Origin: Candidatus Hydrogenedentota bacterium
Lineage (GTDB): Bacteria > Hydrogenedentota > Hydrogenedentia > Hydrogenedentales > SLHB01
DNA length: 64,000 nt
Assembly: GCA_045863295.1 (NCBI GenBank)
Contig: BTWA01000018.1
Location: forward strand, 32,001 to 96,000
Direction: 5' to 3'
The position numbers were made by a program, and so were the translations under genes. The notes beneath the pieces are model-generated. The model was given only the letters and a program-made list of their open reading frames with translations. It made no database searches and was not told the DNA's origin. This document shows positions 2,506 through 19,480 of this stretch, piece by piece; position 1 is the first letter of the stretch, and each line of letters begins with the position of its first letter.

Positions 2506-5109
2506 CTACGCCGCGTGTATTTGCGTTCCAGGCAATAGCGCCACTTGTTCTGCCCGCAAATCAAGTGCAAAGCCCCGCTTTGGAATTGTGCGGATCAGCT
2601 TCTCGCGTCCAGGCACAACGCCGGTAATACGTTCCAGCAGTTTCTTCTTTTGAAAATGCATCTGCGCAGGCTCCACGACAATTTCACCCCAAAGCGCTAT
2701 ATAGATCGACTCATACGGAACACATTCGCCAGGAACTTCCGCCAGGCATCGCATCAGTCGAAACTGTTTCTCCTGCAATCGAACCACGCGGCCGTCCAGA
2801 TGAATTTCACCCGGTTTGCGATCGTCCAGCACCAGTACTGGCTGCATTGCCCGACTTGTTCGATGCATTGCTTTTGCCCCTTGACCACGCACCTCACCCT
2901 GTGCCCATGTTCGCAGTGCGCGTGCCGTACCCGCCGAAACCCATTTTGTCAGCAACGCGTCGGTTGCATCGGCCAATGCTTCCGGCATATGCAGCCCCAT
3001 TCGCTCAAAGGCTATGGCTGTGTGACGTGTCACGTCGGTTTGCCCCAGCGTCATTATCCGTGCCGCTTCCGAGTGCAGTCCGTATTGCACCCGTTCCGCA
3101 GTACGCCGGATTTCGTCTACAAAGCTCCGTTTGGCCGCCATGGCTTCGGCAATGGCCGCTGCGGCGTCCAGCAGCCAACTCACCTGATCGGCCGCCTCGC
3201 CAATCTGTCCCGCGAAGACATGGTACCGCTCCTCCAATTCGTATAGATCGGCTTCGCGAATCCACTCGTCCAGAATGAGCGCCGCCTTGACTGCCCGAAC
3301 TTCCTCGTAAAAAGGCTTCACGGTCGCATGCCGCAATCGATTCAGCGGTACATCGGCTTCGTCCTGCGTCTCTCTTGCGCGGCGCTTCAGTCGGTTAACG
3401 TAGTCCGATTGGTCGTACTCTTGTGCTGCGAGGGCCATTTGAATCAACTTGCCGTCCGCAGTCATCGCCGCCGCCAGGATCAAGTCGATGGGCAACCACT
3501 CACGCGTTTCCGACTCGCGCACCCAATATGCCAGTTCCCGTGCCGTATCAATCGATATTCCTTTGGACGCGACCGCATGCCCAAACGGCGTCGCCGACAG
3601 CCTTCCATCCGCATCAGACTGAACCAACCCCGCGTCCCGTACTCGATGCATTGCCGCGCGGATTCGGTTTTCAACCTCGTCCACCGTACAGGTCTCTGGC
3701 CAAATCCAGCTTCCGGACAATGTCGCGTCAAAAAATTGGGCCAAATCGGAATCCGTCCTGCATGTGCGCGAGGCGACCAATCGGAGCACATGATCCTCCA
3801 GTGGGTCCTGCGCCAGCCGCGGCGTGATTCGTTCGCGGTCGCCATCCACATATCGCCGCCAAAGGGTGGCCCGATCATAGGGAGAAGTGGCGATCACAAT
3901 CGATCGCCCAAAAGGAATTCCAGTGCCAAACCTGCCCGCCCGCCCGCCCATGTTTTCGTATTCCGCGCGCAAAATAGGCGTTTTCCACGGCATGCCAAAC
4001 CGGCTGTCAAACTGCCATTTGTCGGTGGTAATAAAAACGTTCTGTGCGGGAAGATTCAGGCCAACCGCAAGTGTGCTGGTTGCCACCAACGCTTTCACCT
4101 CGCCGGAGCGAAACGCATTCTCCACAATAACGCGTTCGTCCCGGGACAAGTCGGCATTATGAAATGCGACACCGTGCGCCAGGGTTTCCATCAACATATC
4201 CCTGGAATGCGTCGCTTCCAGCCGTTGCATTGCCACCAAGGCCTCGCTCGCGGGAGTACTCGACACCCGCTGCGCCAGCACATGCGCCCCGTTCCGCGTC
4301 TCCGCCTTGGCCTTCACAAACACGAGACACGGCTCTTCACGATCCACAAATGCGCTGACATTGTCCGCGAGGATTTCCCACATGGAATCCGAATGCGTAT
4401 GAATCAGCCGCTCTTCCGATTCCGAATACTCGTTGTGCGTCCGGTAAGAGAACACACCGTCATGCAGGACCCCGAATCGCAACTCAACCGGTCGTCGCTC
4501 ATACACCACCATTTCGGCATTCATCCAATGAGCCAGCTTGTCGGCGTGACCAATCACAGCCGACAAGCCGATCAATCGACGCTTCGATCGCAGGATACGT
4601 GTTAACAGCAGTTCGGCCTGCGCCCCGCGCTCGGGATCGGACAGCAACTCCAACTCATCCGCGACGACCAGTTCGATTTCCTCCAACCGTTCAGGCCGAC
4701 GCACCAACAACTGCCCCAGTTTCTCGTACACGACGACTGCAATCGAAAAGTCGCCCTGTTCCAATGCGCGGTCATGCTCCCGACGGTCACGCGTGGAAAT
4801 AATGACCTTCAGTCCATACGGCTCATACTTAGCACGAAAGCCCGCCCACTTCTCCTCGGCAAGGGCCTTCAACGGCACGAGGTACACGACCTTCTTCCGC
4901 TTCAGCGCGGTTTGAATCGCCGCCATCTCCCCCACGAAGGTCTTTCCGGAACTGGTGGGGGCCTGAATCAGCAGATTGCCACTGGTAAACAGGCAATGGC
5001 GCTTAATGGCGAGTTCTTGAAGTGGAAGGAGGGTTTCGCCCTCTTCCTCCTGCCAAAGGCGGATAATCTCCGGGGGAATGTCGTACCGCAACAATTCGGT
5101 TAATTTCAT
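2506..5109 (-). CDS. Hel308/Ski2-like SF2 DExH-box helicase with C-terminal OmpR/PhoB-type winged-helix domain
   Basis: Q motif (LPLQ), APTSSGKT, VPLKALAEEK, VVADELE, LSAVI, VAFHNADL, ATSTLAVGLNLPA, NMGGRAGR, Hel308-like ATPFG. Last ~100 aa resemble Trans_reg_C (LQEKQFRLMRCLAE...LWG...IRTIPKRGFAL). SD GGGAGGG upstream. Confidence 0.9.
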   Translation of the reverse strand: MKLTELLRYDIPPEIIRLWQEEEGETLLPLQELAIKRHCLFTSGNLLIQAPTSSGKTFVGEMAAIQTALKRKKVVYLVPLKALAEEKWAGFRAKYEPYGLKVIISTRDRREHDRALEQGDFSIAVVVYEKLGQLLVRRPERLEEIELVVADELELLSDPERGAQAELLLTRILRSKRRLIGLSAVIGHADKLAHWMNAEMVVYERRPVELRFGVLHDGVFSYRTHNEYSESEERLIHTHSDSMWEILADNVSAFVDREEPCLVFVKAKAETRNGAHVLAQRVSSTPASEALVAMQRLEATHSRDMLMETLAHGVAFHNADLSRDERVIVENAFRSGEVKALVATSTLAVGLNLPAQNVFITTDKWQFDSRFGMPWKTPILRAEYENMGGRAGRFGTGIPFGRSIVIATSPYDRATLWRRYVDGDRERITPRLAQDPLEDHVLRLVASRTCRTDSDLAQFFDATLSGSWIWPETCTVDEVENRIRAAMHRVRDAGLVQSDADGRLSATPFGHAVASKGISIDTARELAYWVRESETREWLPIDLILAAAMTADGKLIQMALAAQEYDQSDYVNRLKRRARETQDEADVPLNRLRHATVKPFYEEVRAVKAALILDEWIREADLYELEERYHVFAGQIGEAADQVSWLLDAAAAIAEAMAAKRSFVDEIRRTAERVQYGLHSEAARIMTLGQTDVTRHTAIAFERMGLHMPEALADATDALLTKWVSAGTARALRTWAQGEVRGQGAKAMHRTSRAMQPVLVLDDRKPGEIHLDGRVVRLQEKQFRLMRCLAEVPGECVPYESIYIALWGEIVVEPAQMHFQKKKLLERITGVVPGREKLIRTIPKRGFALDLRAEQVALLPGTQIHAA

Positions 5110-5213: not shown

Positions 5214-5340
5214 TTCAATGCAGCGCGTTCGAAGAGAATGTCAGGTGAAGAACCCGACGAAGAAATTGATAAACAATTGCATTGCAACCAGGATCAAGCC
5301 AAAAACGATGATAAACATGGAGTGTCCTCTCCCCTCGCTG

Positions 5341-5556
5341 TCACGGATTTTGTGGGTTGACGCCGAAAACCTGTGCCAGCGTATTCAGAAAATTAGTAGA
5401 CGCACTGAGAAATCCGACGACACCCGTTAACAAAAGAACTATCTGAGAGCCTTGACCAATGAATATGTTCGGTATCGCCAGAATCGTTTGGAAGATGCCC
5501 AACAACTGGGCAATCGGTTCGAACTGGGCCTTCGCGGGCAACGTGTATCGCTTCAT
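5341..5556 (-). CDS. 71-aa hydrophobic/amphipathic small protein with short basic leader (MKRYTLPAKA-Q)
   Basis: ATG at 5556 overlaps the barrel stop codon (ATGA) and follows a strong SD (CAGGAGG). Sequence MKRYTLPAKAQFEPIAQLLGIFQTILAIPNIFIGQGSQIVLLLTGVVGFLSASTNFLNTLAQVFGVNPQNP. Confidence 0.75.
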   Translation of the reverse strand: MKRYTLPAKAQFEPIAQLLGIFQTILAIPNIFIGQGSQIVLLLTGVVGFLSASTNFLNTLAQVFGVNPQNP

Positions 5557-7022
5557 TTCTTCGCCTCCTGCACCGGGCCTTGGTCGTTCTTGGCCCGCTT
5601 GTTTCGTTTCCAAAGGTTCCGGTCGAAATAGATTACCGTCGAAAGCATCACGCGATTCTGCACGACATCTTCGTCGAATCCGCGAATGCCTCGCAAGAAA
5701 TCCGAGTTTACATCATCGCCATACCGCAATTGATACGCGAGGTCGATATTCACGCTCTCATTAATCAGACAGCCCACGCCTACGGCGAAGCCATAAAAAC
5801 TGTCCGGCGCCCCTGTGGCCGGCTCCTGATCGTAAAATACACCGCCGCGCAAGCTCCACAACCGCTTGAACACTTCGTCCGGCTGTTTGGGGATGAAGAC
5901 ATATTCCGCCCCAAACCGTACCGTATACGTCGGGTCGAAATCCTGCGCAAACCAGATGTCATCGAGGTTGCTTGCATCCACGAGCGAGATGCGGTTTCCA
6001 TCCCGCCCCTTAAACCAGAAGTCGTTCCAGTCCGTACGCGAAACGTCCATCGCCAGTGTCAACCGGTCGTTTGGCCGGTAGGCCGCACCCACCGCCAGCG
6101 TTGCCGGAAAACTGATGTCCCGAGGTTCCTTCGTAATTGAGGGGAGGAAAAAAGCGCCGCCTCCCGTGAGCGAATAGTTAGAACGGATGCTGCGCTGCTC
6201 GAAATCGGCCCGGCCGACCCATCCGGTGTCGTATCTCGCGCCAAAGCTCCATTGCTCGTTCATATCCCAAAGCAGTCCGATGGAAAGGTTATATCCAGTC
6301 AGGTCTTTGTACTCGTCATGCGACGTGGACGAGTTCAGCGTGACTCCGTTGGCGCTTTGCGAAAAGGTGGTCGTCTTCAGGTCTTGTTCCCACGAGTTGT
6401 CAGAAATGAACGTGCTTCGCCAAAAATTGAGCGCAACACCCAGCGACAAACGGTGCGTTAATTCCATCGCAATGGCAGGGGAGACCGTGCTGATAGACCC
6501 GTTCTGTTCAAACTTCATGTTCAGGTAGTTGTTGGTAATGGTGCCCGCCGCCGCACCCGCGTTGCCGGGCGCCACGGAAAACGTGTTGAACTGTAAATCA
6601 AAGTTGCGCGTGAAATCGTATTTATGCTGGTAATACAGCCCCACCACCACGTTCCGGTTGAGCACGGTAAACGGCAAGGGGTAGGTAAGGCTTAGAAAGT
6701 TCAGGTTGAACGCATGGTCGTTGTGCCAGGAATCGACCTCGTCATGAAAATCCGCGGAGAACCCTTCGTAGATGCCGTTATACGAGCCAACGATTGCAAT
6801 CTCCGGCACTTCCAACTGCACCAGCCCAGCGGGATTCCACGAAGCCGCGCTTGCGTCGTCCGCGATTGCCACGAAGGCATCCGACATGCCCGCCGCGCGT
6901 GCACCAGACCCCACCGGGCTCGGCGAAACAGAGATTTCCAATTCCTGTGCGGGCGCCGTGGCCGCAAGCAACAACGCAACGGCCAGACACCCTAGTAGCG
7001 TATGCAGGGTTCTATTTGACAA
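5553..7022 (-). CDS. FadL/OmpP1/PorV-like outer-membrane beta-barrel protein
   Basis: Signal peptide from TTG 7022 (MSNRTLHTLLGCLAVALLLAATAPA-QE); hatch motif GSGARAAGMSDAFVAIADDASAASWNPAGL; alternating beta-strands; ...LSTVIYF followed by a 23-aa tail. ORF track start is 7067. Confidence 0.85.
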   Translation of the reverse strand: MSNRTLHTLLGCLAVALLLAATAPAQELEISVSPSPVGSGARAAGMSDAFVAIADDASAASWNPAGLVQLEVPEIAIVGSYNGIYEGFSADFHDEVDSWHNDHAFNLNFLSLTYPLPFTVLNRNVVVGLYYQHKYDFTRNFDLQFNTFSVAPGNAGAAAGTITNNYLNMKFEQNGSISTVSPAIAMELTHRLSLGVALNFWRSTFISDNSWEQDLKTTTFSQSANGVTLNSSTSHDEYKDLTGYNLSIGLLWDMNEQWSFGARYDTGWVGRADFEQRSIRSNYSLTGGGAFFLPSITKEPRDISFPATLAVGAAYRPNDRLTLAMDVSRTDWNDFWFKGRDGNRISLVDASNLDDIWFAQDFDPTYTVRFGAEYVFIPKQPDEVFKRLWSLRGGVFYDQEPATGAPDSFYGFAVGVGCLINESVNIDLAYQLRYGDDVNSDFLRGIRGFDEDVVQNRVMLSTVIYFDRNLWKRNKRAKNDQGPVQEAKK

Positions 7023-9576
7023 CCACTTTATCCCCCACTTGCACGACGCCCAGTTGTTGGTTTTCACGGGTAATCATCACCGCGGCGGTACTGTCCGAAG
7101 CACCCACCCCATCGACCAAGGCTTCGCCGACGATGCTAACTTCTTTATCCACCACTTCATTGGTAATCGGATCGAGGATGTCATTCCCTTCACGGTACAC
7201 CACATACTTCATGGATTCGCGCACTCCTTCCAGCTCTGAGAGGTCGCTTGTGAATCCACGTGTGTACTCTACCGACTGCGGTGCTTTCTCTGGCAGCTTG
7301 CCTATCAACGCCGTGGCTACCCGCCGGATGAGCAATGTCTTGTCGTCGGGAGATCCAACCGCACCGGTCTCCATGTGGCTCGCGGCCACCACACTCGTTG
7401 CCGTGTCGACGGCTTCCAGCCGCACCGTGGTCTCAATACCCACTTGCGACATCGACAACCGAATCAGCCAATCGGTCGGCTCCATCGCTTCCAATGCCAA
7501 CCGCGCACTTTCCGACCCGAGCGCCTCGCTTAGTTCCTGTTCCGCGAGAATCGCGTCGATATTCTCCCTGTCCACAATTGAAAAGCGATTTGATATATCG
7601 AATTCCCGTTCCAATTCCTGTAGCGCGTTTAGCACGTCTTCATCCGAAGACTCGCTGGATTCAAGTGAGGTTTGGTCCAGGAAGGCGATGGTCGCGCGCG
7701 ATGCGGTGACCTGGGTTGTCTCTGTGCCGCGCACATTGACGACCTGTCCCGAAACCCGTGGGAATTCCTGAAAGGTGCGCAAGGCAAGATCGCCGACTAA
7801 CTGCCTCAATTCGTCTTCCGATTCCGCGTTCCCTGCCACGTCCATTCGCGCGACAAACAACGAAGTTTCAGAACTGACTGCCTCTAAGACAATTTCGATA
7901 CTGTCCGCATCGCGGTAGACCCGTCCGATAAGCAGCACTTCTGCGGGCGTGATCGAACCCATCGCGACTCCGCCAAGCGCGGCCCGGCCTTCCCGCGATC
8001 CGAGCGCGGCCGCCAATTGCTGCTCGGAAAGCACTTCGCCAAGGTCGTCACGGTTCACAAAATTGAACCGGTCGTACTTTCGTAGCTCGCTGTCCAGCAA
8101 CGAGACTATCAGCCGATCTTCGTCGTTCAATAGCTGGCCTTTGCCTTTCCACACATTGCCGAGCAGAGACACAGTCAACCGTCCGGACGTGTCTTCCAAG
8201 GGCGAAAGCTCTCGCAGAATGCTGACCCCTGCCGAAGTCTGGTTGCCCTGATCGTCTTTTACTGTCGCTTCCAACTGGTTCACGCCTTGGTCCAGGCGAA
8301 TTCGCCGGCTCAAACGCTGCACCGATCGCCCCGGTACTGTGTCCAGAGGAATGCCATTGAGATCAATTGTGGAAACCGGCGTGGGTGTTACCACATCGAG
8401 ACTTACCAGAATCTCGTCGATACGAAAAACTTGATCGGGCCGCAGGTTGGTGAACCGAATTTCCGGTGTTGCTTCGGCCGCGGCCGGCACCGCCGCCATG
8501 GCCACCACCCGTCCGTTCAATGCCAGGGCGCGAATCCCCGGGGCCACTTCGACGACTTCAGGCCGATACGAGGCGAACATGGTTTCCGGCAATGCAGAAG
8601 ACAGCATGACTCCGTCCGCGGTCAGTTGGCCGCGAGTAATGTTGCCCAGCGTGTCCTTGCTTTCGTAAAGAACAGGAGCCGCCAAAACGGACTTGCTCAC
8701 CCCCGCCGAGAATACATAAGTTCCGTCGGCTTGCGAAGTCAGAGTGGCGGCCGCCCCGCCAATCGTCACAGATTCGACCCCGCTGACATCGTTCACTGCC
8801 CCGGTCACCGTACCGGGCAGTGTAAGCGGCCGGTCAAAACTCAGTGCGGGCCCATCCACGTCGGACTTGATGTCCACGGTGGCTACCGCTTTCTTGCCCA
8901 ATACATCTTCCGTCTCAACCGTGATGGTGTTCTGTCCGGGCCGTAAAACAACCGATTGCTTGAAGGCCACTGGATTGTCCGCAATCTTCAGTGCGTACGG
9001 TTGCCCATCGATGGTGATTCTCGCAATGTAGTTGTCGTCCCTCGCGACACCTTCCACATCAACCACGAGCGAACCCACCGGCACGCCGCCGCTAGGCGAG
9101 GCCAATTCGATGGTCGGGTCCTCAGTATCAGCACCGGCCTGCGAAAGTTTGTCTTTCAGCGCGCGCTCAATGAAATAGGCTGCCCGCGCCGATTCCGTCT
9201 GTTCGTAGCTCAGCCGCAACACGTCGATTGCTTCGTCGTACCGGCCCTGGTGATACAATGCGATTCCCAATTCGCGATTCGGAAAGTATTCGGGAATGAA
9301 ATGCAGTCCGTAGGTACGGGGCCACAATTGATCGCCCTTGCGCGTGAGCATCGCCGTGCGGAAATCCTCTTCCGCCTCGACCCAGTACTTGCCAGAATCG
9401 GCAAAGGCCCGGCCGCGCTCGTAGTAGTTCCACCACCGCCCGCGGAACGGGCCTTCGTAATTCACTTCCGGATACTGGCTCATGTCGCGGCCTTGAATTC
9501 CGAGCGAAGTCGTGGCACAACCGGTAAGCACGCCCACGGCCAGAGACAGCAGAATGTAGCGTTTAAGTTTTGTCAT
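7012..9576 (-). CDS. Lipoprotein with N-terminal TPR, Ig-like repeats, two CsgG/HfaB-like domains and an FlgT-C-like domain
   Basis: Lipobox VLTG-C; TPR-like RELGIALYHQGRYDEAIDVL; Ig-like LRPGQNTITVETED and LDQGVNQLEATVKD; two copies of RFxxVxRxxLxxxLxEQxL. Confidence 0.8.
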   Translation of the reverse strand: MTKLKRYILLSLAVGVLTGCATTSLGIQGRDMSQYPEVNYEGPFRGRWWNYYERGRAFADSGKYWVEAEEDFRTAMLTRKGDQLWPRTYGLHFIPEYFPNRELGIALYHQGRYDEAIDVLRLSYEQTESARAAYFIERALKDKLSQAGADTEDPTIELASPSGGVPVGSLVVDVEGVARDDNYIARITIDGQPYALKIADNPVAFKQSVVLRPGQNTITVETEDVLGKKAVATVDIKSDVDGPALSFDRPLTLPGTVTGAVNDVSGVESVTIGGAAATLTSQADGTYVFSAGVSKSVLAAPVLYESKDTLGNITRGQLTADGVMLSSALPETMFASYRPEVVEVAPGIRALALNGRVVAMAAVPAAAEATPEIRFTNLRPDQVFRIDEILVSLDVVTPTPVSTIDLNGIPLDTVPGRSVQRLSRRIRLDQGVNQLEATVKDDQGNQTSAGVSILRELSPLEDTSGRLTVSLLGNVWKGKGQLLNDEDRLIVSLLDSELRKYDRFNFVNRDDLGEVLSEQQLAAALGSREGRAALGGVAMGSITPAEVLLIGRVYRDADSIEIVLEAVSSETSLFVARMDVAGNAESEDELRQLVGDLALRTFQEFPRVSGQVVNVRGTETTQVTASRATIAFLDQTSLESSESSDEDVLNALQELEREFDISNRFSIVDRENIDAILAEQELSEALGSESARLALEAMEPTDWLIRLSMSQVGIETTVRLEAVDTATSVVAASHMETGAVGSPDDKTLLIRRVATALIGKLPEKAPQSVEYTRGFTSDLSELEGVRESMKYVVYREGNDILDPITNEVVDKEVSIVGEALVDGVGASDSTAAVMITRENQQLGVVQVGDKVVVK

Positions 9577-9597
9577 GACCTTCCGCAGTCAATCCAG

Positions 9598-12225
9598 TTA
9601 CGAGTTTGCTACAGCTTCACGTACCAGCAGTTCCTTGCCCGCGGGCAATTGAACATCCGATTGAATTGTCACGTCCGCCGAACGATCGCCAATGCTGCTA
9701 GTGACCACCGCAAACGCATTCGCGTTGGATGGACGAAACGCCTCATTTACGACCGACCCGACCTCGAACCGCATGCCCTCCCGAACGCCAACATTGCTGC
9801 CCACGTCAATCTTGCCATTGCCATTCGCGTCAACCGTCAACGTTGCCTGAATGGGATATCGCTTTTTTACCGCCGTAGCGATGTCCGCGGCCACTTTCTT
9901 ACCAAGTTCGGTGAAATCCCCTCCGTCTTGCAACGGCATTGACGTAATTACCGGCGTGTCCTGCGACGTCCACACATCTACAAGGCGAGTGGTCAGATAG
10001 TCTTTGTCTTTGACCGAGTTGAATTCAAGTTTCACAAAGAACCGGGCGCTCATGAACTGACCGATTTTCGATTTATCGACTCCTAGTTGCGACAGCGTTT
10101 GCTCAGTAAGTATCTCATTTATCGCGGCCCGGTTTACCATTTCCAGCCCATGCGCAGACGCGAGCGTGTCGCCTGCAACCTGCGGCATCAAATCCGTGAA
10201 TCCATTATCTTCCGCATAAGCAGTCGCCTTTTCGACCGGCATGAAGTAAAACCGGACAGTGTCGCTGGTCCATTCATCCTTGGGCGCCTCCGGCTTCGGA
10301 TTGGCTTTCATGGCAGCCAACACGTCCGCGACAAGCGCCTTGGTTTCCGCCCGCTCCTGAGCCTGCTTTTGCTTCTGAATGAATTCCAGATAGGCGTCGG
10401 CAATCTTCTGATCATTAGCCGGAGCCAATTCTTTCAGCGACGCAAAGATTTGCTCCGCTTTCTCCAACTCATCCAACTTCACATAGGCTTGTCCCAGCGC
10501 CTGCAAGGCTTTTTCCTTCTGCCACTGGAAATTGAAGTTCTGATCTTGTATCGCTTCCAACGCTTTCGCCGTTTCCTCGGCGTTTCCCGCAATCATACCT
10601 TCCAGCGCCTTCAAATAGGGCGTATTCGCCGCCGAGGCATACTGAACGATTTCCGCCTTCGCACTGGCGCCCTTTTGCATGTATGCCAGAGCCGCCAGCC
10701 CTTCGGTTCTCTTGGCTGTGTCCGTGATGCTTTCAAACGTCTTCTGCGCGTCTGCAAAATTGTTCTGCAGCAATTGCGCGCATCCAAGGCCGTACAATGC
10801 GTCCTCGTTTCCACCCGCCGCCAGCGACTCGTACTTGGCTTTCGCAGCGTCCAATTGACCCTGATTCAATAAGCTGTTGGCCTCGGCAACAGGTCCGTTG
10901 TCCTGGCTGCCTCCGCCAAACAACACAACCCAACCGACCAGCACGACCGCCGCCGCAAATGCCGCCACACCGATGTACGTTAACGAACGCGGCTTCTTGG
11001 CATGTTCCGGCTTGATCGCGGATCCGCTCAGTTCACGAAGCATTTCCTCGGGTGCAGGAATCGTTTTCTCCAGTTGCGATTCTTGTGCCTCCAGGGCGTG
11101 CCCAAGATCGCGCGCGAAGTCGTGCGCGCTCTGATAGCGCTGATCCCGGTTGTACTCCAGCGCCTTGTCCACCACTTGAACCAGCGCCGGAGGCAGATCC
11201 TTTCTACGCTCCGTAATGTGTACGGAATTATTCCCGCGTACCTTGTTGATGACCTCCGTCGGAGTCTTGCCTTCGAAGGGGCGCTTGCCCGTCAGCAATT
11301 CGTACAACGAAACGCCCAGTGAAAAAATATCCGTGCGGTTGTCCAGCTCTTCCCCGCACGCCTGTTCCGGAGACATATACGGAGGGGAACCGCTGATCCC
11401 GCCTCCAATGAGCGACGTCTCATTGGAATCCATCAAGCGCGTAAGGCCGAAGTCCGTTATTTTGGCAGGGCCCTCCGGCGTCTCCAGCAGGATATTTGCC
11501 GGTTTGATGTCGCGGTGCACGATGTTTTCGTCGTGTGCGAACGCGAGCGCCTCGGCGCATTGTTTGATTAAACTCACCGCGGTTGGCACGGCGATTCCCG
11601 ACGGATTCGATTTTATCAACGACGCGAGACTCGTGGGCACGTATTCCAATATGAAATAATTCATATCATTGAATTCGCCCCACGCAAAAATATCCACGAT
11701 GTGCGCGTGTTTACCCAGCTTCGCAATCGCCTTAGCTTCACGCTCGAACAGACTGCGATGCTTTTCGTTCATCGGGTTGCGCAGGAACTTTAATGCCACC
11801 TGCCGGCCAAGTTTTTCATCGACCGCATGGTACACATTGCCGAACCCGCCTTCGCCCAGAAGTCCATCTATCGCGTAATTCTGAATCTGCGCGCCAATCA
11901 ACGGATCGCGTGGATCAGATCCGAACGAATCCGACGTGCCAATCGTCTCAACGGTAGGCTCGTCGCTTCGAACCATACGGCTCTGCGCCGACGGGTTTGA
12001 AAGACTCGTGGGTTCGGACCCGCTCAGATTTCGAGTTTCACCAGAATCGGACATATTTATCCTCCAGGCATCGGCTAGGGATTCAAAGCGCGCAGTGGGA
12101 ACTTCGTCGGAACGAACGACCGCCTCTCGAGCAGCAAAGTCGCTCTGCGCCAAGTCGATCCCCTGATTATCAGGGGATTCCGCTTGTTCAGGAGAATCCT
12201 CACCTCTGGCCGATTCACTATTCAT
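9598..12225 (-). CDS. Membrane-anchored Hanks-type Ser/Thr protein kinase with extracytoplasmic TPR, CsgG-like and FlgT-C-like domains
   Basis: LGEGGFGNVY, VALK, HRDIKPANILL, KITDFGL, GSPPYMSPEQ, TDIFSLG; one TM helix (YIGVAAFAAAVVLVGWVVLFGG); TPR helices; VNRAAINEILTEQTL; IDVGSNVGVREGMRFEV. Confidence 0.92.
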   Translation of the reverse strand: MNSESARGEDSPEQAESPDNQGIDLAQSDFAAREAVVRSDEVPTARFESLADAWRINMSDSGETRNLSGSEPTSLSNPSAQSRMVRSDEPTVETIGTSDSFGSDPRDPLIGAQIQNYAIDGLLGEGGFGNVYHAVDEKLGRQVALKFLRNPMNEKHRSLFEREAKAIAKLGKHAHIVDIFAWGEFNDMNYFILEYVPTSLASLIKSNPSGIAVPTAVSLIKQCAEALAFAHDENIVHRDIKPANILLETPEGPAKITDFGLTRLMDSNETSLIGGGISGSPPYMSPEQACGEELDNRTDIFSLGVSLYELLTGKRPFEGKTPTEVINKVRGNNSVHITERRKDLPPALVQVVDKALEYNRDQRYQSAHDFARDLGHALEAQESQLEKTIPAPEEMLRELSGSAIKPEHAKKPRSLTYIGVAAFAAAVVLVGWVVLFGGGSQDNGPVAEANSLLNQGQLDAAKAKYESLAAGGNEDALYGLGCAQLLQNNFADAQKTFESITDTAKRTEGLAALAYMQKGASAKAEIVQYASAANTPYLKALEGMIAGNAEETAKALEAIQDQNFNFQWQKEKALQALGQAYVKLDELEKAEQIFASLKELAPANDQKIADAYLEFIQKQKQAQERAETKALVADVLAAMKANPKPEAPKDEWTSDTVRFYFMPVEKATAYAEDNGFTDLMPQVAGDTLASAHGLEMVNRAAINEILTEQTLSQLGVDKSKIGQFMSARFFVKLEFNSVKDKDYLTTRLVDVWTSQDTPVITSMPLQDGGDFTELGKKVAADIATAVKKRYPIQATLTVDANGNGKIDVGSNVGVREGMRFEVGSVVNEAFRPSNANAFAVVTSSIGDRSADVTIQSDVQLPAGKELLVREAVANS

Positions 12226-12417
12226 CCTACAGCATCCTAAGTTTTCGTACTAGTTCGATTGCGTCGGCAGTCCCAGCACTCACTTTCGGTTCGAGCCGCA
12301 CAACGCTTTGCGCGCCTTATCGATTCACATTGAACTCGTTTCAGTTGGACCCATCGGATCGATCCGGCACTCTGGGCCAGCGGCAAGGTGTCCATGTCGA
12401 CTGGCCAAGGTAGAATT

Positions 12418-12434
12418 AGCAACGCGAGTGCCAA
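12418..12434 (-). promoter_or_regulatory. Sigma54 (-24/-12) promoter upstream of the kinase operon
   Basis: Minus strand TTGGCAC-TCGCG-TTGCT, an exact match to TGGCAC-N5-TTGCW, oriented toward the kinase about 190 bp upstream of its ATG. Confidence 0.8.
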
Positions 12435-12450
12435 CTCTCGGACTGTACAC

Positions 12451-12480
12451 ATAAGTCATTTTTTTATAGATATTTATGCT
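12451..12480. promoter_or_regulatory. AT-rich IHF-like bending site
   Basis: TAAGTCATTTTTT (12452-12464) matches YAANNNNTTGATW with 2 mismatches. It lies in an AT-rich tract at about -45 to -57 of the sigma54 promoter. Confidence 0.5.
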
Positions 12481-12530
12481 CATTGGGCCGTTTTGGAATG
12501 GCTATCGGAAGCTGGATAATTGACTCACCT

Positions 12531-12569
12531 TGATCAGTTATTGAACAACCTGTGTCCAGTTTATGGGCA
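12531..12569. promoter_or_regulatory. Tandem palindromic enhancer (UAS) sites for a sigma54 activator
   Basis: TGATCA-GTTAT-TGAACA (12531-12547) and TGTCCA-GTTTA-TGGGCA (12553-12569). Each is a 1-mismatch inverted repeat; centres are 22 bp apart, at about -132 and -154. Confidence 0.6.
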
Positions 12570-12839
12570 TCGGATCGAAAGGAGTGCCAATCGAAAGGCC
12601 ACAGACGGCGATTTGGATCGGATCCCTGCCGCAATTAGTACAGGCGTAATTCGTGTCACTCGAATCAGTTGGTGCAAGTCCGAACCGCCCTGAAGGATTC
12701 ATGTAAAAAGCCCGGCCGACTGGGAAATACAACGAAGCCTTGTGCTATTCTCCAAGCCGTTTGCTGGGTTCCTGCACATAATGAGAAATACGTTGAACAG
12801 GTCGATTTCTTTACACCGACACCCTGATATGCATAGCAT

Positions 12840-15177: not shown

Positions 15178-17109
15178 ATGATTGCAAAGATGAACAAAGT
15201 GGAAATTGTATGTCTGCGTGAAATCATGCAGGACGTCACTTTGCTCTTGCAGGACAAGGGTCTGATTCACGTTGAGGAGGTACCGCTCGCCTGTGCCGAA
15301 GTGCCCGATTTTTTGAATCGGGCCTGCCTCGCCCCAGAGCAAACGGCGGAATCCGAAGCGCTGGAATCCATGTATCGCAATATCTCCGAGGTAACCCAAC
15401 TACTTTCCGTAAAGCCCAACCCTCACGATATCATTTCGGCGTCCACGACACTGCGTGCACTGAAAAATGAAGATCGCTGGGCGAGTGCGAAGCAATGGAT
15501 TCGGGAATTGCGGTCGTACTCACGTAGGAAGATCAACGCCAAAGACAACCTGGAAGTGTTATCCCAGTTCTTGAAGGTGTTGACTCAGCTTGAACCAATT
15601 GTTGGCGACAAGCGTGACATTGTACTCGGCAAGAATGCCCGAGCGTTCGTGTTGAAGGGCGACATAGCGGGTATCTCCGAAACGATCGACAACCGCCTGA
15701 AGGAACTGATCGGCCTGAAGGCCATTTTTGTGCACAAACAGCTGGCGCGCGATACGATGGCCGCCATTGTCATGTACCCTGAAGAGTTGGATTCAGTCGT
15801 CAGTAAGATTTTCCGCGAAGAAGGCATCACCCCATTTGATGCCCCGGACAAAAACCTACGTGGACTTTCATTTGAACAGGTCGTTCGCCGGCTTCATGAA
15901 TCAATTGACAAGCAGAAGCATTCACTGCAACAGATACAATCGGAGTTGGATACGTTTTCGAAAGACATCGGCGCGAAAGTGGCTGCGCTTGAGTTGATGA
16001 TTCGCGACGAATGTGCGCGCTTCAATGTGGTGAACCAGTTTGCCCAAAGTCAGATGGTGGGCGTCATTCATGGATGGGTGCCGGCCGACGATCAATCCGC
16101 GCTCGAAAAGGCGTTGGATGACAAGTATCCGGGGCAAGTTCTTGTGAGTATCCAGTCCGTCACTGAAGTGCCGGCACATACCATTCCGACCTTGCTGAAG
16201 AACCACCCCATTTTGAAGCCCTTTGAAGTATTGCTGTCAATTCTGCGTCCTCCGACGTACGGCACGTACGACCCCACGGGTCTGGTCGCGGTTTCTTTCA
16301 TTCTGTTTTACGGGTTCATATTGGGAGATGTCGTATATGGGCTGGCCGTGCTTGCATTTGCCTTTTGGTTGAATAGCAAGTGGGGCTACAACCCAATTGT
16401 CCGGTCCGCCAGTGTAGTCGGCAAGTATATGGCCGCTTCGTCTGTGTTGTTCGGCGTCTTGTTCGGCGAGTATTGCGGCGACCTGGGCATGCGGTTGTTC
16501 GGTGTCGAAAATGTGCCGCATATTCTGCACCGCAGTCACGATCACATACCTTTGTTGATGCTTGCCATTGCAATAGGGGCCATTCACATACCACTTGCAT
16601 TGATCATCGGCATCCGCGAGAGCCTTCATCACGGTCACAAAGAACATGCCATGGAAAAGCTCGGCATGTTAATGGGCCTTACGGGCATTGCCGTGGGTGC
16701 AGCGCACCTTGCCGGCGTCAGCGTCTTCGCAGCTTCGGCCGTCGGTATCCTCGCCTTGATGCTCTACGGTATTGGCGCTGTGCTGATCCTGCGGGCCATG
16801 GGTGCGATGGGCATTGTCAACATCCTTGAAATCTTTTCACTGGTCGGCAACGTATTATCCTATGCACGTTTGATGGCCCTGGGCATCGCGTCCGTCATCA
16901 TTGCCGACTTGGCGAACCAATTGCCGGAGGCCATTGGTTACATCATTGGCGTTCCGCTAGCTGCCGCAATCCATGTGTTCAACATCGGCATCGGAATGTT
17001 CAGTCCGACGCTGCACTCGTTGCGTTTGAATTACGTTGAATTTCTTCCGAAGTTCTATTCGCCGGAAGGGAAAAGTTACAAACCGTTCAAGAAGGAGGCG
17101 TTATGGTGA
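15178..17109 (+). CDS. atpI: V/A-type ATP synthase subunit I (a)
   Basis: IPTLLKN, YDPT, FYGFILGDVVYG, NVLSYARLMALG, HSLRLNYVEFLPKFY. Confidence 0.95.
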   Translation: MIAKMNKVEIVCLREIMQDVTLLLQDKGLIHVEEVPLACAEVPDFLNRACLAPEQTAESEALESMYRNISEVTQLLSVKPNPHDIISASTTLRALKNEDRWASAKQWIRELRSYSRRKINAKDNLEVLSQFLKVLTQLEPIVGDKRDIVLGKNARAFVLKGDIAGISETIDNRLKELIGLKAIFVHKQLARDTMAAIVMYPEELDSVVSKIFREEGITPFDAPDKNLRGLSFEQVVRRLHESIDKQKHSLQQIQSELDTFSKDIGAKVAALELMIRDECARFNVVNQFAQSQMVGVIHGWVPADDQSALEKALDDKYPGQVLVSIQSVTEVPAHTIPTLLKNHPILKPFEVLLSILRPPTYGTYDPTGLVAVSFILFYGFILGDVVYGLAVLAFAFWLNSKWGYNPIVRSASVVGKYMAASSVLFGVLFGEYCGDLGMRLFGVENVPHILHRSHDHIPLLMLAIAIGAIHIPLALIIGIRESLHHGHKEHAMEKLGMLMGLTGIAVGAAHLAGVSVFAASAVGILALMLYGIGAVLILRAMGAMGIVNILEIFSLVGNVLSYARLMALGIASVIIADLANQLPEAIGYIIGVPLAAAIHVFNIGIGMFSPTLHSLRLNYVEFLPKFYSPEGKSYKPFKKEALW

Positions 17110-17462
17110 GTGTGTTCAATTCCAAAACGGCGGCTATTTTGGCGCTGGCCCTGATTGCGGCCTCGATGCTGGGCATGCCGGCGTTTGCCGCGGCGGGCGC
17201 GGAAGCGGAAGCAGCCCCTGCAGGCGAGGCCGGTCTGGGCGGCGGCCTGAAGGCTCTGGGATTAGCCGTAGGCGCCGGCTTGGCCATTGCGGGCGGCGCC
17301 ATTGCGACGGCGCGCGCACAGGCGGCTGTCGGCGCGGGCGGAACGGGCGCTTTGGCCGAAAAGCCGGAGTTGTTCGGTAATATCCTGATCCTGTTCGCGA
17401 TTCCCGAAACACTGGTTATCTTTGGTTTCGTGATCGCGATCATGCTCTGGGTCAAGATCTGA
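17103..17462 (+). CDS. atpK: V/A-type ATP synthase subunit K/L (c, proteolipid), single hairpin with signal peptide
   Basis: GLAIAGGAIATARAQAAVGAGGTGALAEKPELFGNILILFAIPETLVIFG with the essential Glu; N-terminal signal ending PAFAA. Confidence 0.92.
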   Translation: MVSVFNSKTAAILALALIAASMLGMPAFAAAGAEAEAAPAGEAGLGGGLKALGLAVGAGLAIAGGAIATARAQAAVGAGGTGALAEKPELFGNILILFAIPETLVIFGFVIAIMLWVKI

Positions 17463-17476
17463 GAAACACCGAATCG

Positions 17477-18070
17477 ATGCAAGCAGCATTGTTCGAAACG
17501 ATGGCGCGGCAGATTGCCGCGCAGTGCGAAGCGGAACTCGCAACCGCGCGCGCCGAGGCCTCTTCCATTCTCTCGGAGGCGGACAAGCGCATCGCCGGTG
17601 TCCGCGAGAAGGCGCTGGCGCGCGCACGCGCATCTGCCGAGGCGTACGCCAAGGGCGCACACCAGATGGCCGTGGCTGAAGCCGAGAAGGAAGCCTTGTC
17701 GCTATATCAGGCCTTGGCTGACGAGGCACTGCATGCGGCTGAAGCGAAACTTGCGCACCTCGCGGAATCGCAGGATTTCGTGCCGGTGCTTACACGGCTT
17801 CTGGCGGAACTTATGCCGGCTTCGCCCGCAGGATCCACAATCCTGGTGCCTCCTGCGCATGTGGACCAATGCAGCGCTTGGCTTAGAACCAATGGATTTC
17901 CTGATGTGCGAGTCGAGCCTTCTGCGGAATTGCCGGATGGGGTGGCCGCACAGGACCGAGATCGAACCTATCGCATCACGAATGCGTTGTCGACCCGCTT
18001 CGGCATGTTGCGAAGCGATGCACGAAAACGTTGCCTCAAAACGCTCTTCGCGGGGAAGGCTGGAACATGA
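17477..18070 (+). CDS. atpE: V/A-type ATP synthase subunit E
   Basis: N-terminal coiled coil; C-terminal DGVAAQ...ITNAL..R; operon position. Confidence 0.85.
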   Translation: MQAALFETMARQIAAQCEAELATARAEASSILSEADKRIAGVREKALARARASAEAYAKGAHQMAVAEAEKEALSLYQALADEALHAAEAKLAHLAESQDFVPVLTRLLAELMPASPAGSTILVPPAHVDQCSAWLRTNGFPDVRVEPSAELPDGVAAQDRDRTYRITNALSTRFGMLRSDARKRCLKTLFAGKAGT

Positions 18071-19128
18071 GTGAAGACAGCGTTCTCGGCGCCTATGTGA
18101 ATGCGCGTGTGCGAGGCATGAAGAGTGAATTGCTGCCGCGCCGCCGGATGGAAGAGTTCCTCGATTTTGACGACGTCAGCCGTCTGATCGACGGACTCGT
18201 GAATTCGCCATATGGCGAAGACATGTCGGAAGCGCTCGGGCGTTTCAAAGGTGCAGATGCCGTGGAAGAGGCCGTGTCTCGAAACCTGGTTAAGACGTTG
18301 CAGAAGTTGAACCGGTTGCTGCGAGATGAATGGGGCGAACTGATCTCCACGTTCCTGCATCGATGGGATCTATTGGCCGTCAAGTCGCTCTTGCGCCTGC
18401 GCCACACGGGAATTGATGAACGCGAGGGCGAACTGGCCTTGTGTCCTGGGCCCACTTTGACGCTCGCGCTGATGCATTCCTTTGCACAGCGAGGATCTAT
18501 GGAGGAACTCGTTGGCGCACTGGTCGCATGGAATCCGGATATCTGCGGCGGTCTCAATACCGGACTTGCGGAGTACCAAAGCACGGGCCACATTCGAGTG
18601 CTTGAAGATGCCCTCGACCGGGCTTACTACTCGGGCAAGTACAAGACCTTGTCTTCTAGCGAAGATGAAAACACCCAAATGGTCCGTAAAATGCTCGGCA
18701 TGGAAATCGATCGCATAAATATTCGCATGATGCTGCATTTAAACGGATCTGGCGGGTCTCCGGAGGATCGTCTGGCGCGATTGCTTCCTGGCGGCACATT
18801 GCGCCAACAGGTTCTGCGCGACATGGCATTTGCCAAGACAGCCGAAGGAGTCGTTGAGCAATTAGGTTCGACCATTTACGCGGACCTCGTTCAACGGCTA
18901 TTCGTGTTCATACAGACCGGGCGTTTCTCGCCGATGGAACGTTTTTTCGAAATTCTAATGATCAACGAACTGAAGCGCGACACCCGCATACATGTCTTTA
19001 GCCTCGCGGTCCTGATGCAGTTCGTCTGGCTCAAAAACAACGAAGTAGTCAATCTTCGGATGATTGCGCGCGGCGAATCCCAGCACTTGCCCAAGGCGCG
19101 CGTGCGCGAGGAGGTGCAATATGCCTAA
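18067..19128 (+). CDS. atpC: V/A-type ATP synthase subunit C (d)
   Basis: AYVNARVRGMKSELL, WDLLAVKSLLR, EIDRINI, KNNEVVNLRMIARG; ATG 18067 overlaps the E stop. Confidence 0.9.
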   Translation: MSEDSVLGAYVNARVRGMKSELLPRRRMEEFLDFDDVSRLIDGLVNSPYGEDMSEALGRFKGADAVEEAVSRNLVKTLQKLNRLLRDEWGELISTFLHRWDLLAVKSLLRLRHTGIDEREGELALCPGPTLTLALMHSFAQRGSMEELVGALVAWNPDICGGLNTGLAEYQSTGHIRVLEDALDRAYYSGKYKTLSSSEDENTQMVRKMLGMEIDRINIRMMLHLNGSGGSPEDRLARLLPGGTLRQQVLRDMAFAKTAEGVVEQLGSTIYADLVQRLFVFIQTGRFSPMERFFEILMINELKRDTRIHVFSLAVLMQFVWLKNNEVVNLRMIARGESQHLPKARVREEVQYA

Positions 19129-19441
19129 TGTCGTGGCAATTGCGAATGGTCACGTAGCATTGAAGCTGGGATTGACAGGCATTTTCGTTGAACACGCTTC
19201 GGATGTGCATCAGGCTCAGGAGTCACTCGTGAAGAACCTGGAAGGTGACGCGGACGTTTTGGTTATCCAGGATGAGTTTCGCGATCAGTTTTCCGAATGG
19301 CACAAGGAGCAACTCAGACGCCACCGCGGTACGCCTCTGGTTGTGTTTTGTCCTTCGTTTTCCGAGGAGAATTCCAATGTGGACGCCTATATTTCGGCGG
19401 TGCTCAAGCCCGCAATCGGATATGAAATTCGACTGGATTAA
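19121..19441 (+). CDS. atpF: V/A-type ATP synthase subunit F
   Basis: About 106 aa, VVAIA...LGLTGI...AIGYEI; lies between C and A. Confidence 0.85.
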   Translation: MPNVVAIANGHVALKLGLTGIFVEHASDVHQAQESLVKNLEGDADVLVIQDEFRDQFSEWHKEQLRRHRGTPLVVFCPSFSEENSNVDAYISAVLKPAIGYEIRLD

Positions 19442-19480
19442 ACCCCTCGGGCATTAGTGCCCGGTATGGAGCGGAGACTT

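Follow-up and report, generated by a model that had tools for sequence, protein, structure and literature searches.

A FadL-family barrel, a FlgT/CsgG-fold lipoprotein and a single-pass receptor as a candidate trans-envelope signalling system of Hydrogenedentota and other, mostly uncultured bacteria

The window analyzed here is a stretch of 64,000 nt from a Candidatus Hydrogenedentota bacterium (GCA_045863295.1, contig BTWA01000018.1, positions 32,001-96,000 of the forward strand). Four genes follow each other on its minus strand, and their ORF positions agree with the short gap and the overlapping stops and starts described in an earlier note on this DNA. The first gene encodes a receptor kinase (12225-9598, 875 aa) and is separated by a 21-nt gap from the gene of a lipoprotein (9576-7012, 854 aa, lipobox LTG-C20). 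The stop of the latter overlaps the start of the barrel gene (ORF 7067-5553, likely start TTG at 7022, mature chain from Q at 6947), and the barrel stop in turn overlaps the gene of a 71-aa peptide (5556-5341) within ATGA. The three large proteins have no paralogs in their own genome, save one weak CsgG-type match.

The unit is preceded by a sigma54 -24/-12 consensus (TGGCAC-N5-TTGCT) at 12433-12418 on the minus strand, around 190 nt ahead of the start of the kinase gene. This is the sole match in the window, where 0.13 are expected; genome-wide, 24 matches are found, versus 6-9 for wrong spacings, and rpoN is encoded in the same genome. The proposed sigma54 promoter is thus present, at 12433-12418 and not at 12569, but it is not general across the receptors: the motif lies upstream of 4 of 38 receptors (background 0.9%), and sigma54 control as a system-wide feature is rejected. 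A 71-aa ORF at 12452-12237, which contains the promoter motif, is unsupported as a gene, and the genome search with it gave noise only. At the other end, the unit is closed by the expected stem-loop (5213-5184, minus strand, 13-bp stem, z -4.3), which is absent from the matches of the terminator scan. The peptide gene and the hairpin are separated by a possible hydrophobic ORF of 25 codons (5318-5241, minus strand), which has a ribosome-binding site; no equivalent was seen behind the peptides of four relatives, and no homolog was seen.

The receptor consists of a Hanks kinase domain (residues 118-365), one transmembrane helix (~418-436), TPRs (~447-604) and a module similar to the middle and C domains of FlgT (~646-875). 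Pfam reports Pkinase at 164.9 bits and a weak TPR, and the glycine loop, VALK, HRDIKPAN and DFG motifs are intact. Together with the single helix and the extracytoplasmic domain, these features place the protein among the Hanks-type receptor kinases, outside the Stk1/PknB PASTA group (NF033483 262 vs cut-off 450; no PASTA match). Pfam CsgG does not match the kinase, and a single-sequence search for ectodomain homologs gave 2 proteins only, so alignments were required. The CsgG/FlgT-like part of the kinase, as first read from the letters, is borne out by structure comparison: the C-terminal 230 aa of the predicted structure fold like the FlgT middle and C domains (3w1e; Foldseek E 1.3e-10; structural alignment Z 10.2, rmsd 7.7, 189 residues aligned).

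The lipoprotein carries, behind its lipobox Cys20, a TPR domain, three to four Ig-like sandwiches, two CsgG/TolB-N-like domains and a FlgT_C-like beta domain; most homologs have one CsgG/TolB-N-like domain. The TPR domain is marked by the invariant motifs RWWNYYERG and RTYGLHF..EYFP.RE.G. In Pfam, Glucodextran_B reaches 41.7 bits and CsgG 29.8 bits (cut-off 20.8) in two stretches, which span profile positions 42-98 of 210, around 60 positions. Since the fold search with the whole model returned Ig-stack proteins only, the evidence for the CsgG-like domains comes from Pfam and from homology to the receptor, whose C-module is related to that of the lipoprotein with an hhalign probability of 99.5. 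The domains listed in the earlier note are confirmed. Three homologous lipoproteins carry an inserted caspase domain.

The genome encodes BamA, so an outer membrane exists. The barrel is recognized by Pfam as FadL/Toluene_X (56.9 bits; PF03349 cut-off 29.7), and the PorV profiles stay below their cut-offs (PF19572 17.9 vs 27; NF033710 24.8 vs 250; NF033709 53 vs 90), which upholds the FadL part of the former "FadL/PorV-like" label and removes the PorV part. A search for the SprA translocon gave no match in this genome, nor in the control genomes. The N-terminal plug (GSGARA..M..A..A.ADD..A..WNPAG) is highly conserved, with W37-N38-P39 invariant among 46 sequences. The closest solved relatives are FadL, TodX, TbuX and CymD, and BamG scores equally well. 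Such relatives would fit FadL-type import of a hydrophobic nutrient, which the lipoprotein would accept while the receptor links its uptake to regulation. This explanation is highly improbable: BamG matches as well as the transporters do, and the gene maps, in which most neighbors are mapped by length only, show no recurring genes for catabolism or for uptake across the inner membrane.

The window barrel has a 23-aa tail beyond the usual terminal Phe441 (5625-5627); F or W ends 31 of 34 complete metagenome barrels. It is because of this tail that the barrel and peptide genes overlap. An assembly error as its cause is rejected, and the tail is real, since the site is covered, with no gap, by contigs from two further samples. 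The tail and the shortened leader of the peptide may reflect decay of the window copy.

An interface between the barrel and the lipoprotein, which the earlier note had asked for, is predicted by a complex model. The pairing of the barrel with lipoprotein residues 20-244 scores 0.73, versus 0.01 for the best of 3 controls; the mark used for this score is reached by 116 of 157 solved pairs and by 2 of 215 mismatched pairs. The runs share at least 73% of their contacts, and the partner pLDDT is at least 81. In the model, the invariant RTYGLHF hairpin of the lipoprotein (W85-F93) is predicted to insert under the barrel and touch the plug. The predicted contacts involve R87, Y89, G90, H92 and F93 on the lipoprotein side and D30, D31, Q44-E46, N99, R291 and D294 on the barrel side, residues that are invariant or nearly so in both families. 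They are predicted to lie on the periplasmic turns, the side being taken from the strand count off the terminal Phe.

The core of the system has three parts and not four: the FadL-family barrel, the lipoprotein with its TPR, Ig and FlgT/CsgG-fold domains, and the single-pass receptor. This three-gene set is shared by three bacterial groups whose members are mostly uncultured. The linkage survey covers 139 distinct lipoprotein loci, and the denominators count loci with room on the contig; the genomes are related, so neither these counts nor the co-occurrence counts are independent. The barrel adjoins the lipoprotein in 84 of 96 loci (47/50 in clade I, 18/18 in clade II, 19/28 in clade III), and a receptor is adjacent in 50/56 loci of clade I, 17/34 of clade III and 0/22 of clade II. 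In clade III, an adjacent receptor is therefore missing at 17/34 loci and an adjacent barrel at 9/28. Among 41 genomes, the receptor module is present in 27 of the 28 with the lipoprotein and absent from 12 of the 13 without it. The neighborhood survey thus confirms a wide co-occurrence of the three large genes; the four-gene composition first proposed does not hold, as the peptide is optional, confined to the kinase clade and absent from 124 of the 139 loci.

The second Hydrogenedentota clade splits the receptor into a kinase and a secreted adaptor. Clade II genomes encode the module as a secreted thioredoxin-like/TPR protein, which lies directly behind a membrane kinase gene at 12 of the 17 loci fetched and has no kinase beside it at the remaining 5, one of them at a contig end. 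A trypsin-TPR gene precedes the split kinase.

The cytoplasmic part of the receptor is exchanged between groups: a Hanks kinase in Hydrogenedentota, a class III cyclase, a CHAT protease or a TIR domain elsewhere. The best 150 representatives of the receptor module comprise 77 with a kinase, 11 with cyclase and CHAT, 6 with CHAT, 4 with TIR, 3 with a cyclase, 12 with other partners and 37 short pieces. Pfam finds cyclase, CHAT and TIR each fused to TPR and/or CsgG, and nearly always one transmembrane helix separates the output domain from the periplasmic part. The CHAT His/Cys dyad is kept in 6/6, and the fused kinases keep DFG in 32/32 and H-R/G-D-x-K-P in most. Some outputs may be inactive, since five kinases have HGD instead of HRD and the cyclase catalytic motif patterns are matched in some copies only.

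Outputs such as TIR, CHAT, caspase and cyclase domains are characteristic of immune systems in bacteria. Such a likeness would suit an alarm for envelope integrity or invaders, in which the complex tethers the two membranes, senses damage, proteolysis or attack instead of one particular ligand, and triggers a stress or cell-death output. The recurrence of proteases near the module (the caspase in three lipoproteins, trypsin-TPR, TPR-CHAT, C13) is consistent with it, as is the use of the FlgT, TolB and LpoB folds as envelope scaffolds. Yet the loci look stable and orthologous over 82 of 135 genomes, unlike fast-turnover defense islands, and the conserved plug-hairpin contact and the linked peptide suggest a defined ligand, which makes the alarm quite unlikely.

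TPR-CHAT and C13 genes recur near the module, and at least 15 C13 matches are found in the genome of the window. The module is also flanked by 28 distinct same-strand proteins of at least 900 aa, with Peptidase_C13 in 5 of the 13 scanned, and the C13 domain family is present in 48 of 135 genomes; of these 48, 45 belong to the 82 with the receptor module. These large neighbors would fit a route of export or surface display, where the barrel and the lipoprotein move or anchor cargo, either the peptide or the large proteins, and the receptor only monitors or regulates. FadL-family barrels do serve as protein scaffolds, as in the docking of the lipoprotein BamH by BamG in the portion of PMC12611786 available, and the CsgG/PelC fold makes rings under export barrels, according to the accessible part of PMC12141448. 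However, the scanned neighbors show no recurring ATPase, TonB or secretin, many of the large proteins carry hydrophobic C-terminal tails of their own, and the C13 query finds nothing in 37 of the 82 genomes with the module. Moreover, the plug is highly conserved with the predicted hairpin beneath it, most loci have no peptide, and the varying part is a signaling enzyme. Export is accordingly a minority reading, and an unlikely one.

The explanation that we consider probable is a trans-envelope relay, in which a signal received at the surface would pass through the barrel, the lipoprotein and the receptor into the cytoplasm. This option of the earlier note is backed by the three-gene co-occurrence, the FlgT/CsgG fold, the predicted barrel-lipoprotein interface and the swapped enzymes on the same periplasmic module. 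A hydrophobic ligand, most likely a peptide, would enter or bind the barrel and shift the plug. The lipoprotein hairpin would read this movement, and the Ig stack would relay the change across the periplasm. There, the FlgT/CsgG-fold module of the lipoprotein may pair with the homologous module of the receptor, as suggested by the rings that this fold forms in FlgT, CsgG and PelC. The resulting clustering of receptors would activate the cytoplasmic enzyme, the Ser/Thr kinase in the window copy. Several observations count against the relay. Clade II keeps the receptor genes apart from the barrel-lipoprotein operon, with kinase-free adaptor loci besides, and in clade III adjacent receptors and barrels are often missing. 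Some outputs may be inactive and the window copy may be decaying, and the large exported proteins that often flank the module are also compatible with an export role.

The 71-aa peptide is an optional partner of the module. It belongs to the AQFE subfamily of the phylum-wide Hydrogenedentota MKH-leader family, and it likely has an amphipathic core; the H-x-x-x-I-S part is missing from its shortened leader. Of the 70 loci of the kinase clade, 15 have an AQFE peptide beside them (downstream in 6, upstream in 5, convergent in 4); none of the 69 remaining loci has one. Three leader-family members in the genome of the window head one operon with a SCIFF-maturase-like protein (69 bits vs cut-off 425), GNATs, a CPBP protease and an ABC transporter, and the window peptide gene lies far from it. 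A dedicated export route for the peptide, the second option of the earlier note, is not favored, given the peptide-free loci and a leader shared with this separate processing and ABC-export operon. Possibly the peptide is the ligand of the relay in the kinase clade, for which it is the best candidate, though optional. A more elaborate and rather doubtful version is a new type of pheromone or identity circuit: the leader-tagged peptide would be trimmed, acylated and exported by the phylum-wide GNAT/CPBP/ABC operon, return via the barrel, be read by the hairpin and cluster the kinase, on a modular platform that in other phyla would be connected to cyclases, caspase-like proteases and TIR domains. 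The restriction of the AQFE subfamily to kinase-clade loci supports such a circuit, as does the fused-kinase receptor in 13 of 14 AQFE genomes, versus 33 of 135 overall.

To our knowledge, few routes bring surface signals into the cytoplasm of two-membrane bacteria, and we know of no ligands for most of the receptor Ser/Thr kinases, membrane cyclases and membrane-bound TIR or CHAT proteins of bacteria. If the relay is true, a constant front end of barrel, lipoprotein and ectodomain with plug-in outputs would be a new signaling route and would give FadL-family barrels a new role. Such a front end would also provide a testable input for these enzymes: the cyclase variant could be followed with a standard reporter of cAMP, and the peptide is available as a candidate ligand. 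The barrel-lipoprotein-receptor relay is likely an undescribed system. The main text of the lipocone paper (PMC12419801), in its accessible part, does not mention CsgG, FlgT or FadL. Among the titles and abstracts surveyed, no description was found of CsgG/FlgT/TolB-N with FadL, kinase, TPR, CHAT, TIR, caspase or cyclase; no description of Hydrogenedentes with a leader peptide was found in titles and abstracts, and no literature joining CsgG and the CHAT domain was found.

In the TonB-dependent FecA-FecR-FecI signaling and in the Rcs relay, information crosses both membranes via a barrel and periplasmic contact. The window system would share this principle and differs in its output, an enzyme that forms part of a single-pass receptor; its three core proteins include no TonB-dependent barrel, no anti-sigma factor, no ECF sigma and no histidine-kinase relay. 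The leader of the MKH family resembles the SCIFF leader. Unlike the SCIFF/ranthipeptide precursors, the window peptide has no Cys and so no Cys-rich core, and NCBIfam (including TIGR03973) gave no match among the seven leader peptides scanned.

The periplasmic modules share a common alpha/beta fold with FlgT of the Vibrio T-ring (PDB 3W1E, 8Z5N), CsgG, PelC, TolB-N, LpoB and the CadC periplasmic domain, and the FlgT match extends to the following beta domain. Unlike in FlgT, the module is preceded by TPR or Ig domains instead of the FlgT N-domain, and flgH is located on a different contig. At the loci themselves, no genes of flagella, curli or Pel were recognized. The system is also distinct from curli, as the CsgG matches are partial and the curlin repeat has no match in the 96% complete genome, with a positive E. 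coli control.

The pair BamG-BamH (PDB 9HIV, 9HJM), in the available portion of PMC12611786, likewise uses a FadL-family 14-stranded barrel as a lipoprotein docking site, and the window barrel matches BamG with a profile E of 2e-8 and the NCBIfam BamG model NF053685 with 66.6 bits, far below its cut-off of 250. However, BamH docks outside the cell, whereas the window lipoprotein is predicted on the periplasmic turns, and the window barrel is linked to a receptor and does not lie beside bamA. The closest functional analog, especially of the cyclase variants, is found in Sinorhizobium meliloti, where, according to the accessible part of PMC7529298, the outer-membrane barrel receptor NsrA is needed for a protein signal to activate the inner-membrane cyclases CyaK and CyaD1/D2. 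As far as that part of the source goes, the window system has no shown homology to it and is set apart by its FadL-family barrel, its separate TPR-Ig-FlgT lipoprotein bridge and its exchangeable outputs.

The barrel, lipoprotein and receptor encoded at this locus probably constitute a trans-envelope signal relay, and this is the reading that accounts best for the system. Its four minus-strand open reading frames encode the receptor kinase (9598-12225), the lipoprotein (7012-9576), the FadL-family barrel (5553-7022) and a 71-aa peptide (5341-5556), and their positions bear out the 21-nt gap and the overlaps described in the earlier note. Pfam likewise confirms the Hanks kinase with TPRs and the Ig-like and CsgG matches of the lipoprotein; the barrel, labeled FadL/PorV-like in that note, belongs to the FadL family but did not qualify as PorV. 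The window barrel carries 23 residues beyond the terminal Phe, the position at which 31 of 34 complete metagenome homologs end. This tail is genuine, since contigs from two other samples span its site without gaps, and it accounts for the overlap with the peptide gene. Sludge-metagenome contigs match pieces of the region nearly without differences.

The claimed control elements were also recovered. The sigma54 consensus at 12433-12418 is the single match in the window (0.13 expected), and rpoN is found in the same genome; a strong hairpin occupies 5213-5184. The words TTTCGAT and GATCCGAT recur at 12570-12625 (minus strand), 140-200 nt farther upstream than the sigma54 motif, together with a second TGGCAC without a -12 element; these are possible activator sites. 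Between the peptide and the hairpin lies a very hydrophobic 25-codon ORF with a purine-rich ribosome-binding site (5241-5318, minus strand), and no counterpart was seen behind the peptides of four relatives. The neighboring genes include one for a Hel308-like helicase at 2506-5109 (minus strand), which has archaeal helicase domain 4, carries a Trans_reg_C winged helix at its C-terminus and is preceded by a near-consensus sigma70 promoter of its own (5164-5136), and V/A-type ATPase genes for subunits I, C and A (15178-21280, plus strand).

Named lipoprotein homologs come from Candidatus Hydrogenedentes. The family is present in 28 of 41 genomes searched (the own genome and 40 relatives), and at 46 loci in the genome collection. 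In metagenomes it turned up on 396 stretches, the 80 best of which were used, and a second phylum, sampled with 401 genomes, has it in 22 of them (E < 1e-80). Regions were fetched for 20 of the main matches from the 41-genome search and for 40 more. A quick tree of 71 lipoproteins separates a kinase clade (clade I; 34 rows, support 100), a second Hydrogenedentota clade (clade II; 23 rows, support 100) and Thermodesulfobacteriota, Nitrospirota and Myxococcota records (clade III; 13 rows, support 91). After duplicates were collapsed, 139 distinct loci were assigned to clades by best profile, and across them the three large genes co-occur widely, with barrel and receptor recurring beside the lipoprotein (in clade II, the barrel only). 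Where the flanking DNA leaves room, the receptor adjoins in 50/56 and the barrel in 47/50 cases in clade I (70 loci), in 0/22 and 18/18 in clade II (23 loci), and in 17/34 and 19/28 in clade III (46 loci). The receptor module, the FlgT-like periplasmic C-terminus, is found in 27 of the 28 lipoprotein-positive genomes and is missing from 12 of the 13 negative ones, counts that are not independent because the genomes are kin. Across the phylum it occurs in 82/135 genomes, at least one low-scoring match being a lipoprotein cross-hit.

The periplasmic part of the receptor is constant, with TPRs followed by the 230-residue module, and the cytoplasmic output varies. All 42 whole clade I receptors are kinases. 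Clade III receptors carry, by Pfam-confirmed domains, cyclase+CHAT (10), CHAT (3), cyclase (3) or TIR (1), and four are cut. The module's 150 best representatives divide into 77 kinases, 11 cyclase+CHAT, 6 CHAT, 4 TIR, 3 cyclase, 12 others and 37 short proteins; a word-indexed search gave 75 longer proteins, the majority cyclase+CHAT and one a caspase. The CHAT dyad is intact in 6/6, and HGD replaces HRD in five kinases. Two module proteins, P0287 and P0299, have an N-terminal cytoplasmic part of ~230-280 aa without Pfam match, possibly a further output domain. In clade II genomes, the module is carried by a secreted thioredoxin-like/TPR protein, whose gene lies directly behind a membrane kinase gene in 12 of 17 loci fetched; a trypsin-TPR-like gene, so labeled by Pfam on two proteins and by N-terminal likeness for the remainder, precedes the kinase in 11 of these 12. 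An example of such an operon is L152:7808-12521, with 11 similar loci, encoding a secreted trypsin-TPR protein, a membrane Hanks kinase whose periplasmic domain is small and a secreted thioredoxin-like/TPR/CsgG/FlgT_C adaptor. Lipoprotein homologs in Desulfobacterales records (L053:31-3018; L054; L062:2808-5882) have an inserted caspase (Peptidase_C14) domain, and directly behind one barrel lies a membrane protein (L055:14617-15225) that looks exosortase-like from its motif.

The first contact of the relay is predicted by modeling. The lipoprotein model (pLDDT 88.6, pTM 0.78) contains TPRs, three to four Ig-like sandwiches, two alpha/beta domains, the second being an insertion limited to a subclade, and a split C-terminal beta domain. 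Barrel profiles match FadL, TodX, TbuX, CymD and BamG chains. For the mature barrel modeled together with lipoprotein residues 20-244, the score was 0.73 and the best control gave 0.01; the mark used is reached by 116/157 solved and 2/215 mismatched pairs, a rough calibration given the custom alignments. Runs share at least 73% of contacts, with partner pLDDT of at least 81. This supports binding of the lipoprotein to the barrel, and an interface of the kind sought by the earlier note is predicted for this pair. The lipoprotein W85-F93 hairpin and R45-R47 are predicted to touch D30-D31 and Q44-E46 in the plug as well as barrel turns 90-99, 165, 231, 291-294, 350-365 and 394-400, all of which would face the periplasm by strand count from the terminal Phe. 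The contact residues are invariant or almost so in both families. Memory of BamG-BamH, a solved FadL-barrel-lipoprotein pair, is an unlikely source of the score, because that lipoprotein docks outside the cell (PMC12611786).

A ligand at the barrel would move the plug, and the lipoprotein hairpin would read this movement. That the barrel serves nutrient uptake is very improbable; an envelope-damage alarm is somewhat less so, though still unlikely. In the signal relay, the FlgT/CsgG-fold module of the lipoprotein would then engage the homologous receptor module, and receptor clustering would activate the output enzyme. Of this reading, the parts, their linkage and the exchange of outputs are what the data show directly. 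The expected fold was recovered for the receptor module (pLDDT 88.5), which matches FlgT across both domains and, in its first domain, also TolB-N, CadC, CsgG, PelC and LpoB; it is homologous to the lipoprotein C-module (probability 99.5).

The main rival, export or surface display, is improbable at about one chance in a handful. It draws on 28 large exported proteins flanking the module, several with NHL and Peptidase_C13 domains, and on the presence of the module in 45 of 48 genomes having a Peptidase_C13-type domain; such proteins might just as well be targets of regulation or proteases that generate a ligand. The family of giant exported proteins has frames of ~1,100-4,200 aa with NHL propellers, Peptidase_C13-like domains and, in many, a hydrophobic end tail (L225:1543-5805; L114:8017-12954; at least 15 matches in the own genome), and is almost restricted to genomes having the module.

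The 71-aa peptide is one of a family of short ORFs that share the leader M(K/R/T)H-hydrophobic-x-x-hydrophobic-S..P-x-A, shortened in the window copy, and have a variable core. The family is matched in 105/135 genomes (E 0.01; weakest matches uninspected), with at least nine further members in the own genome. Three of its peptides head an operon there (contig C30, L109:1-6615) of three GNATs, a CPBP protease, an ABC transporter and a degenerate SCIFF-maturase-like protein. Others lie behind a MacAB-TolC-like exporter, LQPVWE-type peptides directly so in four genomes (L110:1258-6540; L118; L120; L122). The window peptide falls in the AQFE subfamily, which has a clear score gap and occurs in 14 genomes, all already in the seed of that search, a subfamily first found from four sequences; 13 of these 14 have the fused-kinase receptor, against 33/135 overall. 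Among the 70 clade I loci, 15 have a peptide within 1.5 kb (downstream in 6, upstream in 5, convergent in 4); none of the 69 loci of the other clades does, and most kinase loci are without an adjoining peptide. Its presence in three different arrangements speaks for a functional link to the kinase loci rather than hitch-hiking.

No published description of the system was found in the literature searched (listings and abstract starts, with subscription papers and supplements outside), and tests for membership of BamG, PorV, curli, FlgT rings, PASTA kinases and TonB-dependent signaling placed it in none of them. We regard its composition as new; the function, which we infer, has known analogues. 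Folds are shared with BamG, FlgT, CsgG and PelBC (PMC12141448). BamG-BamH likewise pairs a FadL barrel with a lipoprotein, but outside the cell, whereas a periplasmic position is predicted here; the relay would work like NsrA-CyaK of Sinorhizobium (PMC7529298).
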